64,000 nucleotides of DNA from Pelosinus propionicus DSM 13327. Lineage in GTDB: Bacteria; Bacillota; Negativicutes; DSM-13327. Of this stretch, positions 10,009 to 39,240 are shown piece after piece. Under the pieces are notes generated by a model. The model saw only the letters and a program-made list of their open reading frames with translations. It was not told the DNA's origin and did not search any database. The DNA is taken from contig NZ_FOTS01000012.1 of NCBI RefSeq assembly GCF_900114615.1, positions 1 to 64,000 on the forward strand, given 5' to 3'. Within the stretch, counting starts at the first letter, position 1; each line of letters starts with the position of its first letter. Both the position numbers and the translations under genes were made by a program.

Positions 10009-10797
10009 ATGATTAACGAAATAACCAGTGAATTAACACGGATTGAATCAGAAAACGGAGTTAAGATTTTATATGCTGTTGAATCTGGCAGCCGGGGTTG
10101 GGGCTTTGCTTCAAAGGATAGCGACTATGATGTGCGGTTTATATATATTCGTCCGTTGGCAGACTATCTTAGTATTGAGGACCACAAGGATTTTATAGAG
10201 GTACCCATCAATAGCCTTTTAGATATTAATGGTTGGGATATTCGAAAAGCTTTGAGATTATATCGAAAATCCAATCCACCACTTATGGAATGGCTGAGTT
10301 CACCTATTGTATATAGAGATGAACATTCCTTGGCTGAGAAGCTTAGAACATTGAGCGTGGAATATTTTTTGCCAGTGCCTTCGCTGCATCATTATTTAAA
10401 CTTGGCAAAAAAGACATTTCAGGAAATGCTTATAACAAAGCAGGTTAGAATTAAGAAGTATTTTTATGTGTTAAGACCCCTTATGGCCTGCAGATGGATT
10501 GATACATACCAAACGATGGCACCTATGGATTTTCATAAGTTAATGGCTGGTCTAAGGATTGAAGAGGATATTCGGGCGGGAATAGACAGTCTGATGGAGC
10601 GCAAGCTTATCAGCATAGAATCCGATATTGAGCCAATCAATCAGCAGTTATATCAGTATTTTAGCGAAACCATTGCTTATTATGAGGATAAAATTCGTCT
10701 TTTACCCAGAAAAGATCATCCAGAAAAAGCAGCATTAGATGCATTATTTTGCAAGATAGTAAAGGAGGCCTGGGCTGGAGAAAGTACATCTAGCTAA
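10009..10797 (+). CDS. Pol-beta-superfamily nucleotidyltransferase, RlaP-like (COG3541/PF10127-type), copy 1
   Basis: GS-x10-DxD signature ESGSRGWGFASKDSDYDVRFIY. This family is described as associated with RtcB RNA-repair operons. Confidence 0.6.
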   Translation: MINEITSELTRIESENGVKILYAVESGSRGWGFASKDSDYDVRFIYIRPLADYLSIEDHKDFIEVPINSLLDINGWDIRKALRLYRKSNPPLMEWLSSPIVYRDEHSLAEKLRTLSVEYFLPVPSLHHYLNLAKKTFQEMLITKQVRIKKYFYVLRPLMACRWIDTYQTMAPMDFHKLMAGLRIEEDIRAGIDSLMERKLISIESDIEPINQQLYQYFSETIAYYEDKIRLLPRKDHPEKAALDALFCKIVKEAWAGESTSS

Positions 10798-10804
10798 AGA
10801 CGTT

Positions 10805-11803
10805 ATGGATATTCAAAAGATCAAAGAGAAAATAAATAGCACAGAATATGATTTCCTACGGAAAAACAGGAATCTTGGTGATAGAATGATTCTACTGACC
10901 ACAGGAGGTTCATATGCCTATGGCACTCATGTGGAAACCAGCGATACTGATATTCGAGGGATTGCTGCAGAACGAAAAGAAGAACTGTTAGGGCTGTCAA
11001 ACTTTGAGCAGTTTGAAGACCGTATTACAGATACGGTAATTTATGGTCTCCGCAAGACCGTAAACCTTGCCCTGGCTGGAAATCCTAATATTTTAGAGAT
11101 GCTGGGCACTCGCGAAGATCACCTGTTGATTTTAACCGACGAAGGCAAATGTTTACGGGATCATGCAGATCTATTTCTATCAAAGAGAGTAATTCAGAGC
11201 TTTGGGAATTATGCCACTGCTCAGCTAAGACGGCTCCAAAATGCACTGGCCCGGGACAGTTATCCCCAAGCAGTAAAGGAACAGCATATGTTAAATAGTA
11301 TACAGGGACAGATGCATCATTTTAAGCAAAAATACCATCAATTTATGAATGAAGAAATTAACCTGTATATCGACAAGTCTAACAAAGAGGATTATGAAGC
11401 AGAGATTTTTATGGATATCAACTTGAAACATTATCCTTTGAGAGATTTTAAATCGATTTACTCAGAGATGAGCAATGTAGTTAAGGATTATTCCCAATTG
11501 AATCACCGCAATAAAAAGAAAGATGCATTGAAATTGAATAAACATGCGATGCATCTGATTCGGCTTCTGATTACAGGTTCAGAGATACTTCAGGGTAAGG
11601 GGATACATACCTATAGAGCTGCTGAGAGGGATTATCTTTTAGAGATTAGAAGTGGGAAATTTACCTATGAAGAGATTTTTGCAGCCGTTGATAAATTAGA
11701 AGCTGAATTCAAATATGCGGCGCAAAATACGGTTCTACCAGATGAACCTAACCATAAGGCAGCAGAGGAGCTTCTCATCTGTATTTATGAAAAAATGCTT
11801 TGA
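10805..11803 (+). CDS. Pol-beta-superfamily nucleotidyltransferase, RlaP-like, copy 2 (diverged paralog)
   Basis: TTGGSYAYGTHVETSDTDIRG is the same GS...DxD signature. Confidence 0.6.
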   Translation: MDIQKIKEKINSTEYDFLRKNRNLGDRMILLTTGGSYAYGTHVETSDTDIRGIAAERKEELLGLSNFEQFEDRITDTVIYGLRKTVNLALAGNPNILEMLGTREDHLLILTDEGKCLRDHADLFLSKRVIQSFGNYATAQLRRLQNALARDSYPQAVKEQHMLNSIQGQMHHFKQKYHQFMNEEINLYIDKSNKEDYEAEIFMDINLKHYPLRDFKSIYSEMSNVVKDYSQLNHRNKKKDALKLNKHAMHLIRLLITGSEILQGKGIHTYRAAERDYLLEIRSGKFTYEEIFAAVDKLEAEFKYAAQNTVLPDEPNHKAAEELLICIYEKML

Positions 11804-11907: not shown

Positions 11908-13017
11908 TCATGAATTCTTAATGGCAAGGAGTGAATTCAATTGTTCAAGCAGACTGCTATTGCCAGTTAAAGAAATATGACCAATTTTATCGCAGATCTT
12001 TTCTAAGAATTCGAGTTCCTTAAGACGGAAGAGGGTTTGATTTTCTTCCATTAGCTTGGCGGTATTTAACAGACTCCTGGTTGATGCCGTTTCTTCCCGG
12101 CGTGTAATCACGTTAGCAAGGGCTTTTTTTTCAGCAATAAGGACTGTATTTAAAATATCCTTAATTTCACCAGGAAGGATAATATCTTTCACACCAGCAA
12201 ACAGAAATTCTACACCGTAATTCGGTCCTTTTTCTTGAAGGGCTTTTAATACATAGGCAGCAATCTCCTGTTTCATCTTTAAAAGGTCGTCAAGCTTACG
12301 TGTTCCCACATATTCGCGCAGAATAAGCTGCAGCAGGATGTATAGTTGTTGCTCGTAATCTTTCACTTCTACTACTACTTTTAAGGCATCGGTTATTTTA
12401 TATTGACAGACGAAATTAAACCGTATTGGTATTTTGTCTTCTGTCATAATTTCCTGGCCGTTAATTTCGATCTCGCGTTTGCGCATATCCACCTTAGTAA
12501 TATCGATCTTGCTGAAACCAAGCCAGAAATAATGTCTGCCTGGCTCAAGAGTACGCTGCAGAATGTTATTGAAAAATAGTATGCCTTTCATATGTGGCTC
12601 AATATCATATACCCCGCAGTAAGGTTTAAGTTGTGGTATAGCAAGCAGATCCTTGTCTATATGATCATGGATTTCTGGATCGCTTATCGTAACAACTGTA
12701 AAAGTATGCTTTTCTAAAGGTGTCCAAAAGGCATACTTTCCAGTGTTAAGAACCACTTGAAATTTATCATTGACATAATGGAAGGCAATTTCCTTGTCTG
12801 CTACATCGATAATAGCAAGCTCGCTGCATAGATCAGCGTCTTGCAAGAACATATCTAAATGATAACCAGCAATGTAAAATGGTTTGGTTATATCTAGAAT
12901 CTCTACTTTAGTTTGAGAAAAGGGTATTATAAAATGTTTCCCAGGTTTTAAATTGCCTCTATAGTTACCATCTTTAAAGAGTATGCCGCGTTCATGGTCT
13001 CTAATTGTTATTCGCAT
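11908..13017 (-). CDS. SPFH/band-7 (stomatin/prohibitin/flotillin-like) domain protein, apparently a tandem SPFH architecture, no TM
   Basis: Two GxxxKxGxHFxxPF-like starts (GILFKDGNYRGNLKPGKHFIIPF; LEPGRHYFWLGF). The C-terminal block VVVEVKDYEQQ...ILREYVGTRKLDDLL...ITRREETAS is typical of SPFH. Confidence 0.6.
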   Translation of the reverse strand: MRITIRDHERGILFKDGNYRGNLKPGKHFIIPFSQTKVEILDITKPFYIAGYHLDMFLQDADLCSELAIIDVADKEIAFHYVNDKFQVVLNTGKYAFWTPLEKHTFTVVTISDPEIHDHIDKDLLAIPQLKPYCGVYDIEPHMKGILFFNNILQRTLEPGRHYFWLGFSKIDITKVDMRKREIEINGQEIMTEDKIPIRFNFVCQYKITDALKVVVEVKDYEQQLYILLQLILREYVGTRKLDDLLKMKQEIAAYVLKALQEKGPNYGVEFLFAGVKDIILPGEIKDILNTVLIAEKKALANVITRREETASTRSLLNTAKLMEENQTLFRLKELEFLEKICDKIGHISLTGNSSLLEQLNSLLAIKNS

Positions 13018-13295
13018 AATGTATCCTCCTCCGAATAAAAAATATGAAAAATTTATGAATATTCATTGTTATACCTTTCTCTTAGGAATCCCACAGACTT
13101 TTTAGCGGAACTTTGATTCAGCATCAAGATTTACTGTACTGAAGACTGCAAAGGGTATAGGCATATGCCTGATCTCTTGACGGTCTTGAGTGCAGTTGAC
13201 TTATGCGGTATCCTCAAAATCACAGAGCCAAAGCCTGCTGCGTGTTTGGCGGTTAGCCGCGAAATACGCAGGGAATTCCTTTGATTCAGGTGTTT

Positions 13296-13323
13296 AAAAA
13301 GGAAAGACTTGAAAGGTCTTTTT
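13296..13323 (-). terminator. Intrinsic terminator (minus strand) ending the structured RNA downstream of rtcB
   Basis: On the minus strand: AAAGAC-CTTTCAA-GTCTTT followed by CCTTTTT. Confidence 0.5.
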
Positions 13324-13497
13324 CATGTGGGGAGTCGAACCCCATTCCCAAAGGGAATTTACCAATGAAGACTCTACCTCTGAGTTAACCGTAGCAGCTA
13401 CGGTGGAGGAATCGAACCTCCGACACTTCAGTTCAGACCGTTCCTTTGGTATACCCTGCAGCAGAGCTGTGGGCACCGCCAGGCTTTTGAAACCTTA
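13324..13497 (-). ncRNA. Candidate Y-RNA-like (YrlA-type) tRNA-mimic ncRNA, possibly two tandem modules
   Basis: The minus-strand transcript holds two perfect T-arm motifs, GGAGG-TTCGATT-CCTCC and (U)GGGG-TTCGACT-CCCC(A). Each is embedded in nested helices (UUCAU/AUGAA closing stem; AUUCCC-UUU-GGGAAU; 7-bp ACCGUAG/CUACGGU hairpin). No anticodon arm or CCA acceptor is present. It lies immediately 3' of rtcB and is followed by a terminator. Confidence 0.4.
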
Positions 13498-13553
13498 GCA
13501 TGAAAAGTAAACGGTAAAATATATCGTAAAATATACTTCCAATAGTAAGGGCT

Positions 13554-14789
13554 TCAACCTTTAACTACACCGATCGTACGAAGTTTTTTTACCGGTGTGA
13601 TAAGATCAAGCTCATTTGCAATAACAGTATCAATATCTTTATAGGAATAGCGTGATTCTTCTGCGATATCAGTTTTACTGTTCTTACCGAGAACAACACC
13701 ACCGCTTTTTAAATCTGTTATTACTTCTTCAACAGAGAAGCTTTCTCTGGCTTTGGTTCTTGACATACGGCGTCCTGCACCATGGGAGCATGAAGTAAAA
13801 CTTTCCGCATTACCTTTGCCTTCGACAAGATAACTATAGGAGCCCATGGCACCAGGTATAATGCCAGTATCGCCTTCACGTGCCCTAATGGCACCTTTTC
13901 TGTGAACCCAGACATTTTTGTCGTAGTGATTTTCAATAGCGGCGTAATTATGATGGCAGTTAATATAACTGGAATACTCTGGTTGTACACCTCCGGAACG
14001 GATGACCCATCCGTCTATCATTCTTGTTATATCACTCATCATTCGGTCCCTGTTTTCCCGAGCAAATGATAATGCTAAATTCATCCAATCAATATAGGAT
14101 TGGCCTTCAACACTATTCACAGGTAAAAAGGCAAGTTGGTAGTTGTCTGGTACAAGAGAGAACCATTGTTGGTTATGTTCTCTTGCCACAGAGTGGAAAA
14201 ATTTACAGATTTGGTGTCCCAGATGTCTGCTGCCAGAGTGTAGCATAATAGCTACCATACCATCTGCATCCTCCTGCAGTTCAATGAAATGATTGCCGCC
14301 ACCTAAGGTACCTATTTGGTAGTAGCTCTTTTCTATTTCGGGAATCAATTCTTTTGCAAAAGAGTATGTATCTATATTGGATAGTGCTGTATCTATTGTG
14401 GATGAGGTTTGCTGCTTCTTATGAGATCTGAATCCTAAAGGAATATTTCGTAAAATGTCGCCAACGATGCCTTGCAGCAATGAACCGTTAGGTGTAGTTG
14501 TATTTTTGAGAAATGCTGCTTCAATATTGGTTTGCATATAAGCCATCCCGCATCCGATATCCACGCCGACAGCGTTGGGAATGACTACGCCATCTGTGGC
14601 AATCACACCGCCGATCGGCATCCCTTTGCCAGTATGTGTATCTGGCATTAGGGCAACCCATTTATGTATAAAAGGAAGATTGGATAGATTAGTAGCTTGC
14701 TCTAAGCATCCTTCTTCTAGAATATCCTTATCACTTAGCCAGACCTTTATTGGGTGGCTGTTTTTTTGTTTGTCATAAATTGTATACAT
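13554..14789 (-). CDS. rtcB: RNA-splicing ligase RtcB (3'-phosphate/5'-OH RNA ligase)
   Basis: GGGNHFIELQ and multiple His/Cys metal ligands; C-terminal ...SHGAGRRMSR. Start at MYTIYDKQ (ATG 14789) after an AAGGAGATGA RBS. The ORF-track start at 14819 is an upstream extension. Confidence 0.85.
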   Translation of the reverse strand: MYTIYDKQKNSHPIKVWLSDKDILEEGCLEQATNLSNLPFIHKWVALMPDTHTGKGMPIGGVIATDGVVIPNAVGVDIGCGMAYMQTNIEAAFLKNTTTPNGSLLQGIVGDILRNIPLGFRSHKKQQTSSTIDTALSNIDTYSFAKELIPEIEKSYYQIGTLGGGNHFIELQEDADGMVAIMLHSGSRHLGHQICKFFHSVAREHNQQWFSLVPDNYQLAFLPVNSVEGQSYIDWMNLALSFARENRDRMMSDITRMIDGWVIRSGGVQPEYSSYINCHHNYAAIENHYDKNVWVHRKGAIRAREGDTGIIPGAMGSYSYLVEGKGNAESFTSCSHGAGRRMSRTKARESFSVEEVITDLKSGGVVLGKNSKTDIAEESRYSYKDIDTVIANELDLITPVKKLRTIGVVKG

Positions 14790-14926
14790 GAAATCATCTC
14801 CTTGGCTATAATTTACCATAGGATTGATCAGGCATCATTAAAAAAAGTTTGCGAACTTCAAGGAGTCGTTGACAATTATTGCTAGGATGATATGATTAAA
14901 ACAACCAAAATGTAAGGGTGATAGAC

Positions 14927-16183
14927 ATGGCCGGATTTACGGAATTAATAAAGAACTTCGATAAAATAAGAGACTATACTAGAGATTTTTTTGTGTACGG
15001 TTATAAGTGTAGAAATGATTACACCAGAAAGAGCGGTAGAAGCTACGATAATGAAAGACGAAGAATAGAGAGCTATCTTTCTGGATACATCAAATGGGAA
15101 ACTAATTCCCGGGGGAAAAATATATTTATCAGCACGGATACGTCGGATCTTTCTAGTAATCCTCTCTTTTCCATGTGGGAGGCAAAATCTTTTACTAAGA
15201 ATGATTGCCTGTTGCATTTTTGCCTGCCTGATATACTAAGGGAAAATCCTGGTTTAACAGCAAAAGATGTGGCAGGTATTTTGAGTGAGCAATACCTGTT
15301 TTGTTTTAATGATTATGATATGTTGGATGTCATGACAGTTCGTAATAAGCTCAATGAATATACAGTTGCTGGTTTATTCAGCACAGAAAAAAAAGGTAAA
15401 ACTTTGCACTATTCCATAAATCAAAGCCTATTCGATCAAGCCGATCCTTCTGTAATAAACAACCTTCTATCTGCTTTGCAGCTTTTTGAGAATGTTGTTC
15501 CCGCTGGGGTTTTGGGCTACTTTATTCGACGGGATAGAGGCAAAAGAGAAGATATATTTTCCTTTCGTCATATCTTCATGTCACACACACTGGATGATGA
15601 GGTATTGATTACGATTGCTAATGCAATGGATTGTAAAAAAAGCATACGCTTTGCAAACTACAGTTCTCGGTCTAAGACCCATTCAGTGGAAACTGTACTT
15701 CCGCTAAAAATTGCTACCAATGTAAGGCATGGACGAAGATTTTTGCTAGCTTATAATCTTAGGATGCGCAGGCCGTTTTCCTATCGCTTGGACTATATTA
15801 AAAACCTTGAAATTTTAGAGGTAAGTGATATCTATGAAGCAAAATTGGCAGAACTTGAAAACCGATTGCCTTTTTCATGGGGAGTAGCCCTTGGCAAAAA
15901 AACGCAGATGGAGAAAGTTGAAGTAATTCTTCATATTGATGAGATAAGGGAAGGATATGTTCTTATAAGACTGAAAAGAGAAGGAAAAAATGGCACAGTT
16001 GAAAAAATAGGATATCATACCTTTGCTTACCGGAATGAAGTGTTTGACACTATGGAAATGGTTCCTTGGCTTCGAACCTTTATTGGGCGAATTATATCTG
16101 TCAAAGGATCGAATAAACCAGTCATTCAGCGGTTTATTGATGATATTGACCGCATGGCAAACTTGTACGACGAAGAGCAGTGA
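14927..16183 (+). CDS. HTH-WYL-domain transcriptional regulator (PafB/PafC/BrxR-like), copy 1
   Basis: WYL-like block IRFANYSSRSKTHSVETVLPLKIATNVRHGRRFLLAYNLRMRRPFSYRLDYIKNLEIL and an N-terminal wHTH-like region. Divergent from rtcB, with a TTGACA-N17-TATGAT promoter at 14865. Confidence 0.55.
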   Translation: MAGFTELIKNFDKIRDYTRDFFVYGYKCRNDYTRKSGRSYDNERRRIESYLSGYIKWETNSRGKNIFISTDTSDLSSNPLFSMWEAKSFTKNDCLLHFCLPDILRENPGLTAKDVAGILSEQYLFCFNDYDMLDVMTVRNKLNEYTVAGLFSTEKKGKTLHYSINQSLFDQADPSVINNLLSALQLFENVVPAGVLGYFIRRDRGKREDIFSFRHIFMSHTLDDEVLITIANAMDCKKSIRFANYSSRSKTHSVETVLPLKIATNVRHGRRFLLAYNLRMRRPFSYRLDYIKNLEILEVSDIYEAKLAELENRLPFSWGVALGKKTQMEKVEVILHIDEIREGYVLIRLKREGKNGTVEKIGYHTFAYRNEVFDTMEMVPWLRTFIGRIISVKGSNKPVIQRFIDDIDRMANLYDEEQ

Positions 16184-16209: not shown

Positions 16210-17256
16210 ATGGTATATGCGATTAGGCGAAAGGGAGAGGTTTTTATTTTGGAGATTTTTAATGAAATACATAGTCGATATTTTTATATTATAAGTGAAA
16301 TTCTAAAAGCTGCTTCCTTAAGTAGCCTACATAGTAAGGATATTGCTAGGATAGTTGCTAAGTTAGGTTTTGCCGAAACCGCAGTGACCCTGCCCGAAAA
16401 ATTAGTAAATGCGAATGGGGAAGGCTATTTTGTACTGAAAGAAGAGTCTTCCAGATATACGCCAGTCTTAAAAGGCGATCCACCCCTTTTATTAACGGAG
16501 TATCAAAAACGGTGGATTCGAACAATTGTAAAGGATAAACGCTTTTCCCTATTTATAGATGAAAGTCAATATCAGCTTTATGAAGAACTGCTTTCCGGCG
16601 TTGAACCTTTGTATGATAGTCAGCACTTTATAACGGTTGACATGGCCAATGATGGTGATGACTACGAAAGCAAGGAATACAGAGGGATTTTTAAATCAAT
16701 AATGCAGGGTATACAAGATAACAAAATTATTCTCATTACATATGAAAGTGGTAAAGGTAACCGCCTTTCCGCATACTTTGCTCCTTATAAGCTAGAGTAT
16801 TCTATTAAGGATGACAAATTTAGACTATGCGGGATACGAGTTAGGCAAGGTAGAATGAGAAGCCTCTATAAACTAAACCTTTCCCGAATCAGTTCGGTGG
16901 AAGTCATGGAATATAATAGACCAGAAAATCTTGCTAGCTATATTAAAAGCCTTCGTATGCCACTACCAGTAGAAATAGAGATTACAAATGAGCGTAACGG
17001 TTTTGAACGAATCTTTACCCAGTTATCCAACTTTGAGCGTGTTTCAGAATACGATGAAAATACTAAAAGATGTCTAATGAAAATTTATTATTATGAGGTC
17101 GATGAGATGGAACTACTCATAACCCTTCTTTCTTTTGGACCGGTTGTCAAAGTGATTGGTCCCGACCACTTCAAGGAGCAATTAATCGGGCGCATAGCAA
17201 GACAGAAACAATTGCTTACAATGCTAGATGAAAGATATGTAGAAGGTAATTCATGA
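16210..17256 (+). CDS. HTH-WYL-domain transcriptional regulator, copy 2 (probable partner of copy 1)
   Basis: HTH LHSKDIARIVAKLGF. WYL-like block ILITYESGKGNRLSAYFAPYKLEYSIKDDKFRLCGIRVRQGRMRSLYKLNLSRISSVEV. The start may be the TTG at 16249 after an AAGGGAGAGG RBS. Confidence 0.55.
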   Translation: MVYAIRRKGEVFILEIFNEIHSRYFYIISEILKAASLSSLHSKDIARIVAKLGFAETAVTLPEKLVNANGEGYFVLKEESSRYTPVLKGDPPLLLTEYQKRWIRTIVKDKRFSLFIDESQYQLYEELLSGVEPLYDSQHFITVDMANDGDDYESKEYRGIFKSIMQGIQDNKIILITYESGKGNRLSAYFAPYKLEYSIKDDKFRLCGIRVRQGRMRSLYKLNLSRISSVEVMEYNRPENLASYIKSLRMPLPVEIEITNERNGFERIFTQLSNFERVSEYDENTKRCLMKIYYYEVDEMELLITLLSFGPVVKVIGPDHFKEQLIGRIARQKQLLTMLDERYVEGNS

Positions 17257-17286: not shown

Positions 17287-18531
17287 ATGCTAGAAAAAGA
17301 GTTTGTAAGAAAAATCAATAGGATTCATGGTGCGGCATATGTTGTTGGTGGATGGGTTAGAGATTGGATTAGAGGAGTTATCCCTAAAGATAAAGATTAT
17401 GTGATTACTGGTGTGCTTGAAGAGGATTTTAATGAATTGTTTCCACAAACAATTAAAATAGGCAAGTCCTTCCCTGTATATTTGCTAGAAATCAATGGCG
17501 AGTCTTGTGAAATTGCATTTGCCAGGCAGGAACGTAAAACGGGTGTAGGTTATAAGGGGTTTGAGGTTTCCTTTGATAAAAGTATCCGTATTACGGATGA
17601 TCTATATCGTAGAGATACAACGATGAATAGTATTGCCTTTGATTTACAAACGCTTGAACTGATAGATCCATTTCAAGGTAAGCAGCACATTGCTGAACGA
17701 AAGATATTCCCCACTTCACATCATTTCAAAGATGATCCAATTCGGGCGCTGCGAGCAGCGAGACAATCAGCACAGTTTGATTTTTCCATTGATGAATCAA
17801 CAATTGCGTTGATGAAGGAATGCCGGGAAGAATTAACGAGCGAGCCTAAAGAACGATTATTTAATGAACTGGACAAGGCTTTACAATCGAATAAGCCATC
17901 GCTATTTTTCTTAGCATTACAACAGGCTAATTTGTTGGATATCACGTATCCTCCAATTCATGCATTAATTGGACAGACACAACCCGTCCAGTATCACCCA
18001 GAGGGAGATGCCTTTAACCATACCATGGATGTTGTAGATCGGGTCTCGGAGCTCAACCCCAGAATTGAGGTGCGATTTGCAGCATTAGTACATGATCTTG
18101 GCAAGGGACTGACGCCAAAGGAGAAATTGCCAACGCATCATCTGCATGATGTGCTGGGGCTTGATGCCCTAAAGGCGTTCGATAAGCATATTGGATTACC
18201 TAATAAGTGGATAGCATGTGCAGAGTTTGTCATCCAGCACCATATGCGTGTCAATAAATTAAAACAAAAAGGTAAAATCGTTGATTTTATCCTTGCGTTA
18301 CATAAAAATCCAATTGGTGATAAAGGATTTAGTGATGTTTTGCTCGTTGACAATGGAAGTCTGCCAGATTGCTTGCTGAATTTCGAGAAATATATTACTG
18401 CAATTAAGACGGTAAAGGGCAATGATGCACCGAGTGAGTTGCAAGGGAAAGAGATAGGGGATTGGATTAGGCAGCAACAGATTAAAGCATATGGTCAGCA
18501 AAAATGGCTTTCTAAGATTAATGATAGATAA
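17287..18531 (+). CDS. cca: CCA-adding tRNA nucleotidyltransferase (class II Pol-beta NTase with HD domain)
   Basis: N-terminal GGWVRD and head motifs (RRDTTMNSIAF); HD-domain HxxHD (HHLHDVLG). Confidence 0.8.
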   Translation: MLEKEFVRKINRIHGAAYVVGGWVRDWIRGVIPKDKDYVITGVLEEDFNELFPQTIKIGKSFPVYLLEINGESCEIAFARQERKTGVGYKGFEVSFDKSIRITDDLYRRDTTMNSIAFDLQTLELIDPFQGKQHIAERKIFPTSHHFKDDPIRALRAARQSAQFDFSIDESTIALMKECREELTSEPKERLFNELDKALQSNKPSLFFLALQQANLLDITYPPIHALIGQTQPVQYHPEGDAFNHTMDVVDRVSELNPRIEVRFAALVHDLGKGLTPKEKLPTHHLHDVLGLDALKAFDKHIGLPNKWIACAEFVIQHHMRVNKLKQKGKIVDFILALHKNPIGDKGFSDVLLVDNGSLPDCLLNFEKYITAIKTVKGNDAPSELQGKEIGDWIRQQQIKAYGQQKWLSKINDR

Positions 18532-19333
18532 AGGTTTTTAATGAAGTATATTTCTAAGAAGCATCAAGAATAGGGGTGAATCAATAGTCTTAAGTATGAG
18601 AAAGTAATAAATGAATGGGACCCAATTAACTTATAGCAAAGAAAATAGTTGATAATTTATAATCCCAAAGATGTGGGAGGATTTATGGCTTGGATATTTA
18701 TATTATAAGGAAGATTGCGATTTCACAAGGTATCAATTAAAATACAAGTTACTTATTATGGCGTAACGACAAAATGTGAGGAATTAATATCGACCTCATG
18801 CGAAGGGGGGACTAAGGATGAAGAATTACTGGTCATCATTCTGAAAAATTTGATCAGTGCTGCCTTCCAGCCGCTTTCCTTGAAGGTTTTTTAAAATAAA
18901 AAATAAGGATAGTATCCTTGGAAGTGTTTTGTTGGCTACTCATAAAATACTAGTGAATATTTCAAATTTATTACCATTAATTCTGCAATAATAATGCTTG
19001 GCAACAATAATATACTTATGGTAATATATTAGCATATCCTTGGAAATCAGTTTGATAAGTAAAATAATAATGAAACATGCAAACTTATTGAAAGGTAAGG
19101 ACGCAAAGCCATGGGTCTACATACTTTTGTATACGGCTGCCAGGTTGCAATTGCAATCTGGCATTTTTTGTTGTGAATAAAAATAGTTATTATTTAAAAA
19201 TTTTAAAAGTAGGGTTACCATAAAAAAGAATAAATGGTAAAATAATACAACGAATATTAATGCCTGCACAGTGGAAGAAATAGGTACTGTTTGCAATTGA
19301 TCATGTATATTTTATCGGGTGGTGAATTATTGA

Positions 19334-20824
19334 GTGAAAAAAAATTTAATACTATGCTTTGCAATGACAGCAATAATAGGTACATCGACTGGGTATCCCT
19401 TTGGGGGTGAGTGGATGGGAAATGTGGCTTATGCTGCTTCAAACCAGCTTGATAATGTTTCTACTGCTAATTCAGAAAAGTTCAAAGTTGACTTTGCCTA
19501 TGAAATGTCTCAAATTACATCCACAATCGTATCTTCTCAAAATACAAATGTTGAAAGTTTTAAGAGTGAGTTTGCATATGCAACTGCTAAGGTAACAGCA
19601 AAAGTAATGCAATTTATACCTGACTCCCAAAAGAAGGACTTTTCCTATGAAATGGCACAAATTACAACAAAGATAATAAATGATCCAAACTTGAATGTTG
19701 AAAAAGCCAAAGTTGAATTTGCGTACAAAACTGCGCAACTTACAAGCAAAATCATAGCAAGCACAGAGCCGATTACCGTAGGTAATACAACTGCAACTGC
19801 AACTACAAATACAACGACGTTGCTTAGGAATAATGCTGATATTGAGCAAAAATTAGTAGGGAAAGCAAATACGATTTCTGCTAGTCCAAAACCAATGATT
19901 CAGACAAGTGATGTTACTCCGGAGACATATACAAGTCTTTTAAATGAATTGAAGCATGTGGGAGACCACAGAAGTAACTTGGATAATAAGATAAATATTG
20001 ATGGTGAAATTCGTTATCACTACGCATTAAACAGTGGTCTTGGACAAATAGGCAAGGATTCTTCGGGTTTTCGGGCACGTCTTGCTATTGATACGGAATT
20101 TAATAAAGATTGGCGTGTTTACGGAGGTTTGGAAGGCAAGAAAAATATAGTGAATTATGATAATGGTTTTGAGTTTTCCCGCTTATATATAGCTGGCAAA
20201 TTAGGACAATCCATGGTAAAAGCTGGTTCTTTTGGCTATCTCATGGCAGAAGGAAATATTTATGATAGTGATTATGATGGTGTTCGGGCTGATTTCGGTC
20301 GACCAATCAAATACACAGTGAGTTATGGATCCACTAATGATACTCAAAAAACATATATTGCAACTGCACTTTATAATGATTTTGATTATAATCTAGAAGC
20401 TGGTGTTTATCGCAATCAGCTGAATGACAGCAGTAATAGCCGAAACACCATTCGTACCCTTGGCGGCAACTATAATTTCAGTAATTTTAGTTTAGGAGCT
20501 ATGGTTTTGAACTCTAGTCTGAAAGATACAAAAGGTAACCGCAATGGATATGTGTTTAGTTTTAACTATGGTGATCTCAAAACATGGAGACCAGGTACTT
20601 ATGGCGTCTTTGCTAAATATTATAATCAGCCTCAATATACTTATATTTCTCATGGTATGAATGGTTCTGGTAGCAAGATGGGAGGCTTTAGGGGTTATGG
20701 TATAGGTATGAGCTATACCGTTGCTGAAAATTTTGTTGCAGGAATTGAATATTATAGTTTAGCAGATAAAATTAACGGAGACAAAGGCGATACTTGGTGG
20801 AGCCAGTTAACTCAGTATTTTTAA
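19334..20824 (+). CDS. Putative outer-membrane beta-barrel protein with signal peptide, 4 x 22-aa N-terminal repeats and a C-terminal ...QYF
   Basis: GTG start after a GGGTGGTGA RBS. Repeats KVDFAYEMSQITSTIV / FKSEFAYATAKVTAKVMQ / KKDFSYEMAQITTKII / KVEFAYKTAQLTSKII. The C-terminal half alternates hydrophobic residues (beta-barrel-like) and ends in Phe. Confidence 0.5.
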   Translation: MKKNLILCFAMTAIIGTSTGYPFGGEWMGNVAYAASNQLDNVSTANSEKFKVDFAYEMSQITSTIVSSQNTNVESFKSEFAYATAKVTAKVMQFIPDSQKKDFSYEMAQITTKIINDPNLNVEKAKVEFAYKTAQLTSKIIASTEPITVGNTTATATTNTTTLLRNNADIEQKLVGKANTISASPKPMIQTSDVTPETYTSLLNELKHVGDHRSNLDNKINIDGEIRYHYALNSGLGQIGKDSSGFRARLAIDTEFNKDWRVYGGLEGKKNIVNYDNGFEFSRLYIAGKLGQSMVKAGSFGYLMAEGNIYDSDYDGVRADFGRPIKYTVSYGSTNDTQKTYIATALYNDFDYNLEAGVYRNQLNDSSNSRNTIRTLGGNYNFSNFSLGAMVLNSSLKDTKGNRNGYVFSFNYGDLKTWRPGTYGVFAKYYNQPQYTYISHGMNGSGSKMGGFRGYGIGMSYTVAENFVAGIEYYSLADKINGDKGDTWWSQLTQYF

Positions 20825-31192: not shown

Positions 31193-33052
<1,860 letters not shown>

Positions 33053-33064
33053 CTAACCAATGTT

Positions 33065-33103
33065 ATAATATGATAAGTGCAGTAGATATGTGATTATGTT
33101 AAT
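33065..33103 (-). promoter_or_regulatory. Sigma-K-type promoter ATTAACATAATCAC-N17-CATATTATA for collagen gene 1
   Basis: On the coding strand this matches the AC-N17-CATANNNTA mother-cell consensus. The same 14-nt upstream motif and exact 17-nt spacer recur upstream of copies 2 and 3. Confidence 0.45.
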
Positions 33104-33179
33104 GATATAAAATATTGAGTCAATTGTATTCCATAGGAATTAGTGCTTTTATATAAAAGAAATGTTGAAACAAAGCTGT

Positions 33180-34856
<1,677 letters not shown>

Positions 34857-34930
34857 TAGTGAAAATTGCATAGAGAAAGCAGGCCTACGACCAAAATCGA
34901 GGCCTGCCTTGTTATGACATGCAATTGACC

Positions 34931-36924
<1,994 letters not shown>

Positions 36925-37137
36925 AAGAATTGTTTCATTTAAACTAACTATTCAATTTTTAATCTGAATGATATCACGATAGATTAAGTTAGATTGTATG
37001 CTATATTGAAAGCAACAATAACGAGTATGTTAATGAAATATGATGAAAGACATCAAATATAGATAGAGGAATGGAAGAATGCGCCGTTTTCCATTCCTCT
37101 ATCTTGTAGTGATATTGTAAGGCAGTTTTATAATTTT

Positions 37138-39240
<2,103 letters not shown>

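Follow-up and report, generated by a model that had tools for sequence, protein, structure and literature searches.

We identified a structured non-coding RNA in a 64,000-nucleotide (nt) stretch of the genome of Pelosinus propionicus DSM 13327 (contig NZ_FOTS01000012.1, positions 1 to 64,000; hereafter the window). It is encoded on the minus strand at around 13515-13084, between the RNA ligase gene rtcB and a gene for a Band-7/SPFH protein. Covariation across related sequences indicates that these ~430 nt form a single conserved structured RNA, and we regard it as very probably a Band-7-associated, YrlA-like tRNA-mimic RNA. The explanation that best accounts for the whole, to which we give a probability of roughly 0.6, is that this ~430-nt tRNA mimic is the RNA subunit of a Band-7 tRNA-repair particle. 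An earlier note on the same DNA (the original prediction) had described a Y-RNA-like element at 13296-13497, an extent that proved too narrow, since it covers the central half of the RNA. The covariation backs the three largest domains and is weaker for a second T-arm.

The original prediction started from two T-arm sequences on the minus strand, and both are present: GGAGG-UUCGAUU-CCUCC (T-arm 1) and GGGG-UUCGACU-CCCC (T-arm 2, 13343-13329). They are the only two sites in the 64 kb that match GGTTCRANTCC, for which the mean in shuffled sequences is 0.16. The nested helices said to surround each of them are supported by covariation for T-arm 1, where they form a unit that we call module 1:

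13430-13366, minus strand: module 1, a circularly permuted tRNA mimic of the YrlA type (Rfam YrlA, 42.4 bits; our model R1, 73.1 bits)
13430-13426 with 13370-13366, minus strand: closing stem, UGAAG with CUUCA, which encloses T-arm 1, the acceptor hairpin and the D-arm
between UGAAG and T-arm 1, minus strand: V-like linker UGUC
13421-13405, minus strand: T-arm 1
13404-13388, minus strand: closed acceptor hairpin of 7 base pairs (bp), ACCGUAG-CUG-CUACGGU
between the acceptor hairpin and the D-arm, minus strand: U8-A9-like UA
13385-13371, minus strand: D-arm, ACUC-AGAGGUA-GAGU

Module 1 thus has the YrlA topology: the tRNA chain is opened at the anticodon loop, and its acceptor end is closed. 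All the nucleotides needed for the contacts of the tRNA elbow and core (U8-A14, G15-C48, G18/G19 with U55/C56, and U54-A58), which may form here, can be read in the UA before the D-stem, the D-loop AGAGGUA, the linker UGUC and the T-loop UUCGAUU. In a MAFFT alignment of 30 sequences, 88% of the cells are paired at the proposed positions, against 38-50% when the pairing partners are slid, and 17 of the 20 pairs show compensatory changes (0/500 shuffles). The covariance model built from this alignment (R1) matches the window only once, with 73.1 bits (E-value 1.5e-21). Over 78 non-redundant sequences, the paired fraction is 91%, with compensatory changes in 18/20 pairs and covariation in all four helices. 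Given the covariation over 78 sequences and the R1 score, the structure of module 1 is well supported by comparative sequence analysis. The single R1 match also bears on the idea that the locus might encode two Y RNAs in tandem: the two T-arms are instead parts of one larger RNA.

Module 1 is flanked by two larger domains:

13515-13437, minus strand: 5' domain, a three-way junction on which the minimum-energy fold and RNAalifold agree
13515-13504 with 13447-13437, minus strand: P1, ACCGUUU(A)CUUU with AAAG-GAACGGU, which closes the three-way junction
13499-13478, minus strand: P2, a hairpin within the three-way junction
13477-13448, minus strand: P3, a helix that carries GGUGCC (13477-13472) and GGUAUACC (13455-13448), with a 2-nt bulge
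13282-13084, minus strand: 3' domain, with several helices, supported by covariation at 28 long-range pairs
13280-13271 with 13092-13084, minus strand: long-range helix S1 of the 3' domain
13213-13206, minus strand: conserved 8-mer GGAUACCG of the 3' domain, flanked by helix S3
within the 3' domain, minus strand: hairpin CUGCGU...ACGCAG

MAFFT placed P1 and P2 poorly when given all 76 5' regions, and a subgroup alignment was used for the 5' domain. In these 41 sequences, 86% of the cells are paired (40-44% when slid), and 24/30 pairs are compensatory (0/500 shuffles). The 28 long-range pairs of the 3' domain give similar figures, with 88% of cells paired (36-52% when slid) and compensatory changes in 24 of them (0/500 shuffles). 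The motif GGATACCG lies 114-373 nt (mostly 120-280) past T-arm 1 in 56/74 representatives. Covariation of helices in regions downstream of related rtcB genes, which had been named as a way to check the structure, is therefore found for module 1, the 5' domain and the 3' domain. Single-sequence folding reproduces the modules. No Rfam 15 family describes the 5' junction or the 3' domain.

Between module 1 and the 3' domain lie a second unit and a hairpin that are less widely conserved:

13365-13329, minus strand: module C, a second elbow-like unit made of UUGGUAA (13365-13359), a hairpin and the 4-bp T-arm 2 (13343-13329)
13358-13344, minus strand: hairpin of module C, AUUCCC-UUU-GGGAAU, between UUGGUAA and T-arm 2
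13321-13303, minus strand: hairpin AAAGAC-CUUUCAA-GUCUUU with an anticodon-loop-like loop of 7 nt (CU-NNN-AA), followed by CCUUUUU, to 13296

Module C was found in 36/77 representative loci. Pairs 2-5 of its T-stem are paired in all 36, and pairs 2 and 3 covary. It gives a weak mascRNA-like match in Rfam (18.5 bits, E-value 0.42). The helix UUCAU/AUGAA that had been drawn around T-arm 2 is rejected: it overlaps the closing stem of module 1, and an A-to-C change disrupts it in L001, a Pelosinus locus that is 97% related. The hairpin at 13321-13303 had been taken for a clean intrinsic terminator, and this does not hold either. Its 6-bp stem has two G-C pairs and a folding energy of -3.7 kcal/mol, no better than that of shuffled sequences (z-score -0.66), a CC separates the stem from the five U, and our terminator scan did not flag it. 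Conserved, covarying structure also extends 200 nt beyond it.

The RNA belongs to a family. When we fetched 14 Firmicute rtcB loci without reference to the RNA, 10 had the same type of RNA downstream of rtcB. These relatives share a 5' motif, GGUGCC followed by a hairpin and GGUAU(A/G)CC, which we joined to the T-arm to obtain a DNA pattern. A scan of metagenomes with this pattern gave at least 120 matches. Three of the matches listed are genuine tRNA-Ser(GGA) genes, as exposed by ARAGORN, and there are at least 117 related loci. The same scan over viral contigs gave no match. The family occurs in the cultivable genera Pelosinus, Enterocloster, Lacrimispora, and Hungatella.

The strongest association of this family is with Band-7, a gene that is not part of the search pattern. 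Among the matches listed, 91 loci have at least 1.5 kb of downstream sequence. A same-strand Band-7 gene lies no more than 1.2 kb downstream in 88 of them, and the three that lack it are the tRNA-Ser false positives, so that the association holds for 88/88 true loci. The link with rtcB is looser: among the matches listed, the gene immediately precedes the RNA in 52/72 loci. Where rtcB is not adjacent, as in L024, L035, L083, L106, and L125, the RNA keeps Band-7. We clustered the open reading frames (ORFs) of 116 loci and obtained four recurrent families: a WYL-type pair (usually divergent from rtcB), RtcB, Band-7, and antisense artefacts. There was no TROVE/Ro60-like family among the clusters of these 116 loci. 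In one locus from a Lachnospiraceae metagenome-assembled genome (L011), a Clostridiales-1 RNA (RF01699, 126 bits) lies at 2677-2832 on the minus strand, between the divergent WYL and rtcB genes.

In the window, the neighbourhood of the RNA is as follows:

10009-10797 and 10805-11803, plus strand: tandem paralogues of the RlaP nucleotidyltransferase (PF10127; Pfam RlaP E-values 2.6e-87 and 3.2e-20), convergent with the Band-7 gene
11908-13017, minus strand: Band-7/SPFH gene, downstream of the RNA (Pfam Band_7 E-value 5e-31)
13557-13530, minus strand: promoter-like site TTGAAG-16-TATATT, just upstream of the RNA (consensus scan, weak match)
13554-14819, minus strand: RNA ligase gene rtcB, directly upstream of the RNA (Pfam RtcB E-value 3.7e-114)
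14918-16183 and 16210-17256, plus strand: pair of WYL-domain proteins, divergent from rtcB
17287-18531, plus strand: CCA-adding-enzyme-like nucleotidyltransferase with an HD domain (Pfam PolyA_pol and HD; NCBIfam CCA-adding models)

With the Pfam assignments, the minus-strand order is thus rtcB, RNA, Band-7. RtcB shares 97% identity with its counterpart in a Pelosinus metagenome-assembled genome and 58-66% with those of Clostridia such as Enterocloster, Lacrimispora and Hungatella. No obvious transmembrane segment was seen on inspection of the Band-7 protein sequence. The first WYL protein matches Pfam WYL with an E-value of 4.8e-7, and the second (orf348) has weak WYL and WCX matches. BLASTP within the window does not link orf348 to its WYL neighbour; the link is transitive across loci, the WYL proteins of the pair falling into one cluster across 66 loci. 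We considered orf348 as a hidden Ro60 and rejected this, as it has no relative in the PDB and its only matches are the weak WYL/WCX ones. The pair presumably provides a sensor and a regulator of the operon, in place of RtcR, an arrangement that we take to be reminiscent of the PafB/PafC regulator pair. The CCA-adding-like gene is in the same operon as the WYL pair and occurs in the related loci L001 and L106 too.

The RNA and the Band-7 gene may have a promoter of their own, as suggested by the weak consensus match at the promoter-like site. The ~30 nt ahead of P1, including the TATATT -10-like box, are near-identical in the window and in L106. In the latter, read-through into the RNA from the upstream gene is impossible, because that gene is divergent. 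In many Clostridial members (L025, L045, L055, L113, L133, and others), a small hairpin such as AGGCGUUAAAGCCUU precedes P1 by ~20-40 nt; after it come a U-run and, just ahead of the RNA, a TATAAT-like box. These could be the terminator of rtcB and the promoter of the RNA, or an extra 5' helix of the RNA. At the other end, a 21-codon ORF, MNIHKFFIFFIRRRIHYANNN*, preceded by AAGAGAAAGG, starts right after the 3' end of the RNA (13066-13001, minus strand) and runs in a different frame over the start codon of Band-7 at 13017. The equivalent ATG appears, judging from L048, to be the start of Band-7 itself in several related loci. This ORF may be a leader peptide, a shift in annotation, or a chance occurrence.

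The activities encoded around the RNA give a frame for its possible role. RtcB joins 3'-phosphate or cyclic-phosphate ends to 5'-OH ends, and CCA-adding enzymes restore the 3' ends of tRNAs. RlaP extends damaged tRNA ends by one or two nucleotides (PMC12776372). We propose that the RNA and the Band-7 gene would be co-transcribed, probably starting at a promoter immediately ahead of the RNA, with read-through from rtcB as a further source. The RNA would then do for Band-7 what YrlA is thought to do for Ro60: it would be a subunit of a particle built on an oligomeric Band-7 protein and would display tRNA-shaped surfaces, which could recruit or regulate RtcB, RlaP, and the CCA-adding enzyme in the repair of nuclease-cleaved tRNAs. 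The closed acceptor stem has exactly 7 bp, which would make cleavage by RNase P and then addition of CCA possible, as reported for the YrlA of Mycobacterium smegmatis. The proposal of a particle fits the activities of the neighbouring RtcB, RlaP, and CCA-adding enzyme, and it follows Burroughs and Aravind (Nucleic Acids Research 2016), who, as reported in 10.1101/312249, predicted a tRNA-like RNA, the b7a-tRNA, beside Band-7 in RtcB loci. This computational prediction is not known to have been validated experimentally, and the same paper reports that YrlA occasionally adjoins Band-7. The specific mechanism, in which the RNA is the scaffold of the Band-7 particle and recruits the repair enzymes, is put forward by analogy and tentatively, with odds somewhat short of even. 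A further elaboration seems to us rather unlikely: the ~430-nt RNA and a soluble SPFH/Band-7 oligomer would make up a tRNA-surveillance particle, whose two elbows and anticodon-loop bait (mostly of the UGU type) would capture or organise anticodon nucleases or RtcB, RlaP, and the CCA-adding enzyme, and fragments cleaved from the RNA could serve as the ligand of the WYL pair.

Several points count against the particle proposal or the evidence behind it. The invariance of GGUGCC/GGUAUNCC and T-arm 1 arises by construction, as the pattern was drawn from this family, and the sampled metagenome loci all carry the pattern motifs, relatives lacking them being outside the sample. The alignment of 78 sequences (A2) was made by fitting to the model; alignment A1, produced with MAFFT only, gives the same answer. 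Folding energies of single sequences are unremarkable (z-scores from -0.4 to -1.9), and the case for a structured RNA therefore rests on covariation. Module C and the anticodon-like hairpin are present in just about half of the representatives. The RNA, its processing, and its binding to Band-7 are predictions from sequence, and the likeness to b7a-tRNA is second-hand, through the description given in 10.1101/312249. Finally, the strict position of the RNA, on the same strand and directly upstream of Band-7, would suit a cis-acting leader of the messenger RNA equally well.

This last reading is the best placed of the alternatives, although we consider it unlikely. The RNA would be a structured 5' untranslated region that controls Band-7 in cis, for example through autoregulatory binding of Band-7 or the sensing of tRNA fragments. 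The geometry suits it: the distance from T-arm 1 to the beginning of Band-7 homology is 272-613 nt, the 3' domain ends ~20-70 nt ahead of the Band-7 start codon, and the promoter-like site precedes the RNA instead of lying in the gap that separates it from Band-7. In Pelosinus, the weak hairpin and U-run in the middle of the RNA may leak or attenuate transcription, but no such U-run was seen after the hairpin in the related loci inspected. We found no conserved expression platform, and the 3' strand of S1 leaves the ribosome-binding site uncovered. Two mimics of the tRNA elbow endowed with the nucleotides for tertiary contacts are typical of trans-acting mimics such as YrlA, and Y RNAs also lie on the same strand as, and beside, their protein partner. 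The two roles are compatible with each other.

A second alternative concerns the hairpin at 13321-13303. The original prediction held that the RNA lacks an anticodon arm and is not a tRNA. The second part stands: ARAGORN detected no tRNA in the 64-kb window and none in the Firmicute-type element across 59 loci, there is no Rfam tRNA match in the window, and module 1, whose acceptor stem is closed by a loop, is not a cloverleaf. The first part must be qualified, given the 7-nt CU-NNN-AA loop of this hairpin. Of the 78 representatives, 40 have an equivalent hairpin with a 7-nt loop (CU-NNN-A-N), and in 20 of these the loop reads CUGUNAA. Among the 40 hairpins (L006-L138), the triplets of the CUGUNAA loops are GUC (8), GUU (6), GUA (5), and GUG (1), a set that we take to be that of the anticodons of queuosine tRNAs. 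The U33-G34-U35 of these tRNAs is the recognition site of colicin E5 and of tRNA-guanine transglycosylase. In L027, L036, L047, and L065, the hairpin stands directly 5' of T-arm 2, in the position of an anticodon arm. The RNA might thus be a decoy or bait for nucleases that target tRNAs, or be cleaved itself to give a signal sensed by the WYL regulators. Hughes et al. (PMC7790460) suggested that YrlA could inhibit an anticodon nuclease by competition and showed that tRNA fragments activate RtcR, both of which would be in line with such a role. Yet the hairpin was undetected in half of the representatives, the loop of the window reads CUUUCAA and not UGU, CUGUNAA may simply be a sequence bound by a protein, and no nuclease gene was identified in the cluster. 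We find a decoy function less plausible than a cis-acting leader, and improbable in absolute terms.

The RNA could also be a genuine Y RNA, binding a Ro60/Rsr protein whose gene lies in another part of the Pelosinus genome, since its core is YrlA-like and our view is limited to 64 kb of that genome. In the E-value mode of Rfam, YrlA (RF02553) is the sole meaningful match to the RNA (13450-13344, 42.4 bits, E-value 3.8e-8), well short of the gathering threshold of 69 bits. The gathering mode gave no match at the element in the window and the 14 rtcB loci, and 8 relatives score 30-39 bits, all below the threshold. The YrlA model fits well at the T-arm, the next hairpin, and the D-arm, and poorly at the stems toward the Ro60-binding part, its inner stem being unmatched. 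Its outer stem (ACCAAAGG/CCUUUGGG) was rejected, as it conflicts with helices supported by covariation. The Rsr-binding module of YrlA has a conserved 5' motif, GNCGAAN0-1G (Chen et al. 2014), which was not found upstream of T-arm 1 in the window nor in 73 of the 78 representatives; the other five match it at inconsistent positions. As originally predicted, there is no recognisable Ro60 in the window. More precisely, no TROVE match was found among the 28 non-overlapping ORFs of at least 330 amino acids, less five of 339-361 amino acids and the four that are antisense in the collagen-like genes. YrlA genes lie within ~4 kb of rsr, and Y RNAs on the same strand as the adjoining protein partner; no conserved TROVE-like gene cluster appears across the 116 related loci. 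The description of the element as Y-RNA/YrlA-like and adjacent to rtcB, which ends at 13554, is thus correct for topology and location. Membership of the family does not follow: the RNA is YrlA-like but outside the YrlA family, because it scores below the threshold, lacks the Rsr-binding motif, and has no Ro60 neighbour. A distant Ro60 partner is therefore very unlikely.

Lastly, debris of tRNA genes, a chance motif, or a small ORF (13294-13476 on the minus strand or 13325-13498 on the plus strand) would explain why a T-arm and a D-arm resemble those of tRNA and why two ORFs of 57-60 amino acids overlap the region, but we reject this on the covariation, as over 100 loci share one non-tRNA topology, most of whose helices show compensatory changes, the motif count is far above chance, and ARAGORN called no tRNA or pseudo-tRNA there in any scanned locus.

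Two other features of the window deserve mention. A c-di-GMP-I riboswitch on the plus strand (19068-19152, 69.4 bits for a gathering threshold of 35) lies upstream of an ORF with no Pfam family (19334-20824) and of an exopolysaccharide-type cluster with a UDP-glucose dehydrogenase, a polysaccharide deacetylase, and a GT2 glycosyltransferase (weak PilZ match). On the minus strand, 31193-39231 has four large collagen triple-helix repeat genes, two of them with a BclA C-terminal domain (exosporium-type), and long spurious antisense ORFs overlap these genes.

A Band-7-associated tRNA-mimic RNA bears on the role of bacterial Y RNAs and tRNA mimics in RtcB repair operons. The 2016 prediction of Band-7-linked tRNA-like RNAs makes a YrlA-like RNA without Ro60 less surprising than had been assumed, and a specialist will not be astonished by it; it is the size, the architecture, the linkage to Band-7, and the cultivable hosts that turn it into a testable question. 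Our results give that prediction a concrete form in Firmicutes, with boundaries, a structure model, more than 100 members, and a Band-7 partner without Ro60. The multi-domain ~430-nt RNA may be previously undescribed: in the literature that we consulted beyond Wang et al. 2018 (10.1101/312249), through which we know the 2016 prediction, the large RNA was not found. Because it escapes the YrlA model, the family merits an entry in Rfam. Since its hosts can be grown, pull-downs, knock-outs, and structural work are feasible, and could show if an SPFH protein replaces Ro60 as the core of a tRNA-mimic particle.

Among known RNAs, the tRNA-like topology of YrlA, described by Chen et al. 2014 and Wang et al. 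2018 (10.1101/312249), is that of module 1. Both RNAs have the T-arm, the closed acceptor stem-loop, and the D-arm in the same order inside an anticodon-stem-like helix, with a variable-like linker, and both keep the nucleotides for the contacts of the tRNA elbow and core. The window RNA likewise adjoins rtcB and shares its strand with the gene of the presumed protein partner. They differ in what surrounds the core: instead of the Ro-binding stem, the window RNA has a three-way junction of 79 nt, a second unit with a T-arm, and a 3' domain of ~200 nt, for a total of ~430 nt against ~100-130 nt for Y RNAs, and its partner gene is Band-7/SPFH, whereas that of YrlA is Ro60. In M. smegmatis, RNase P cleaves YrlA, to which CCA is then added, and the cleavage has been linked to a closed acceptor stem of exactly 7 bp (Chen et al. 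2014). The window RNA shares such a stem and its cluster encodes a CCA-adding enzyme, but stems of 7-9 bp are found in only 14 of the 78 representatives of the family. The 3' end of MALAT1 (mascRNA), the tRNA-like domain of tmRNA, and viral tRNA-like structures also mimic a T-arm or elbow without decoding; their scores here are far from the thresholds, the window RNA has no CCA end or messenger part, and the contexts are unrelated.

The closest parallel in context is the b7a-tRNA, which, in the account given in 10.1101/312249, is a tRNA-like RNA beside Band-7 and rtcB in repair clusters with RlaP. That account has it strongly resembling an authentic tRNA, whereas the window RNA is permuted and is not a cloverleaf. 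Three of our loci, from Thiotrichaceae/Methylococcaceae metagenome-assembled genomes, probably contain the b7a-tRNA itself. In the gamma-proteobacterial L017 and L018, a near-canonical cloverleaf with anticodon CAU lies between rtcB and Band-7 (that of L018 ends in ...ACC), and L016 has a less regular tRNA-like call at the same place. A permuted tRNA-like unit is also found in the spacer between rtcB and Band-7 of these loci (L016 6281-6440, L017 6730-6845, L018 3218-3333; R1 scores of 28-46 bits), where it overlaps or abuts the tRNA-like gene call. Since its own topology is permuted while L017 and L018 hold a near-canonical cloverleaf, the Firmicute RNA looks, from these sequence comparisons, like a rewired and enlarged relative of the b7a-tRNA.

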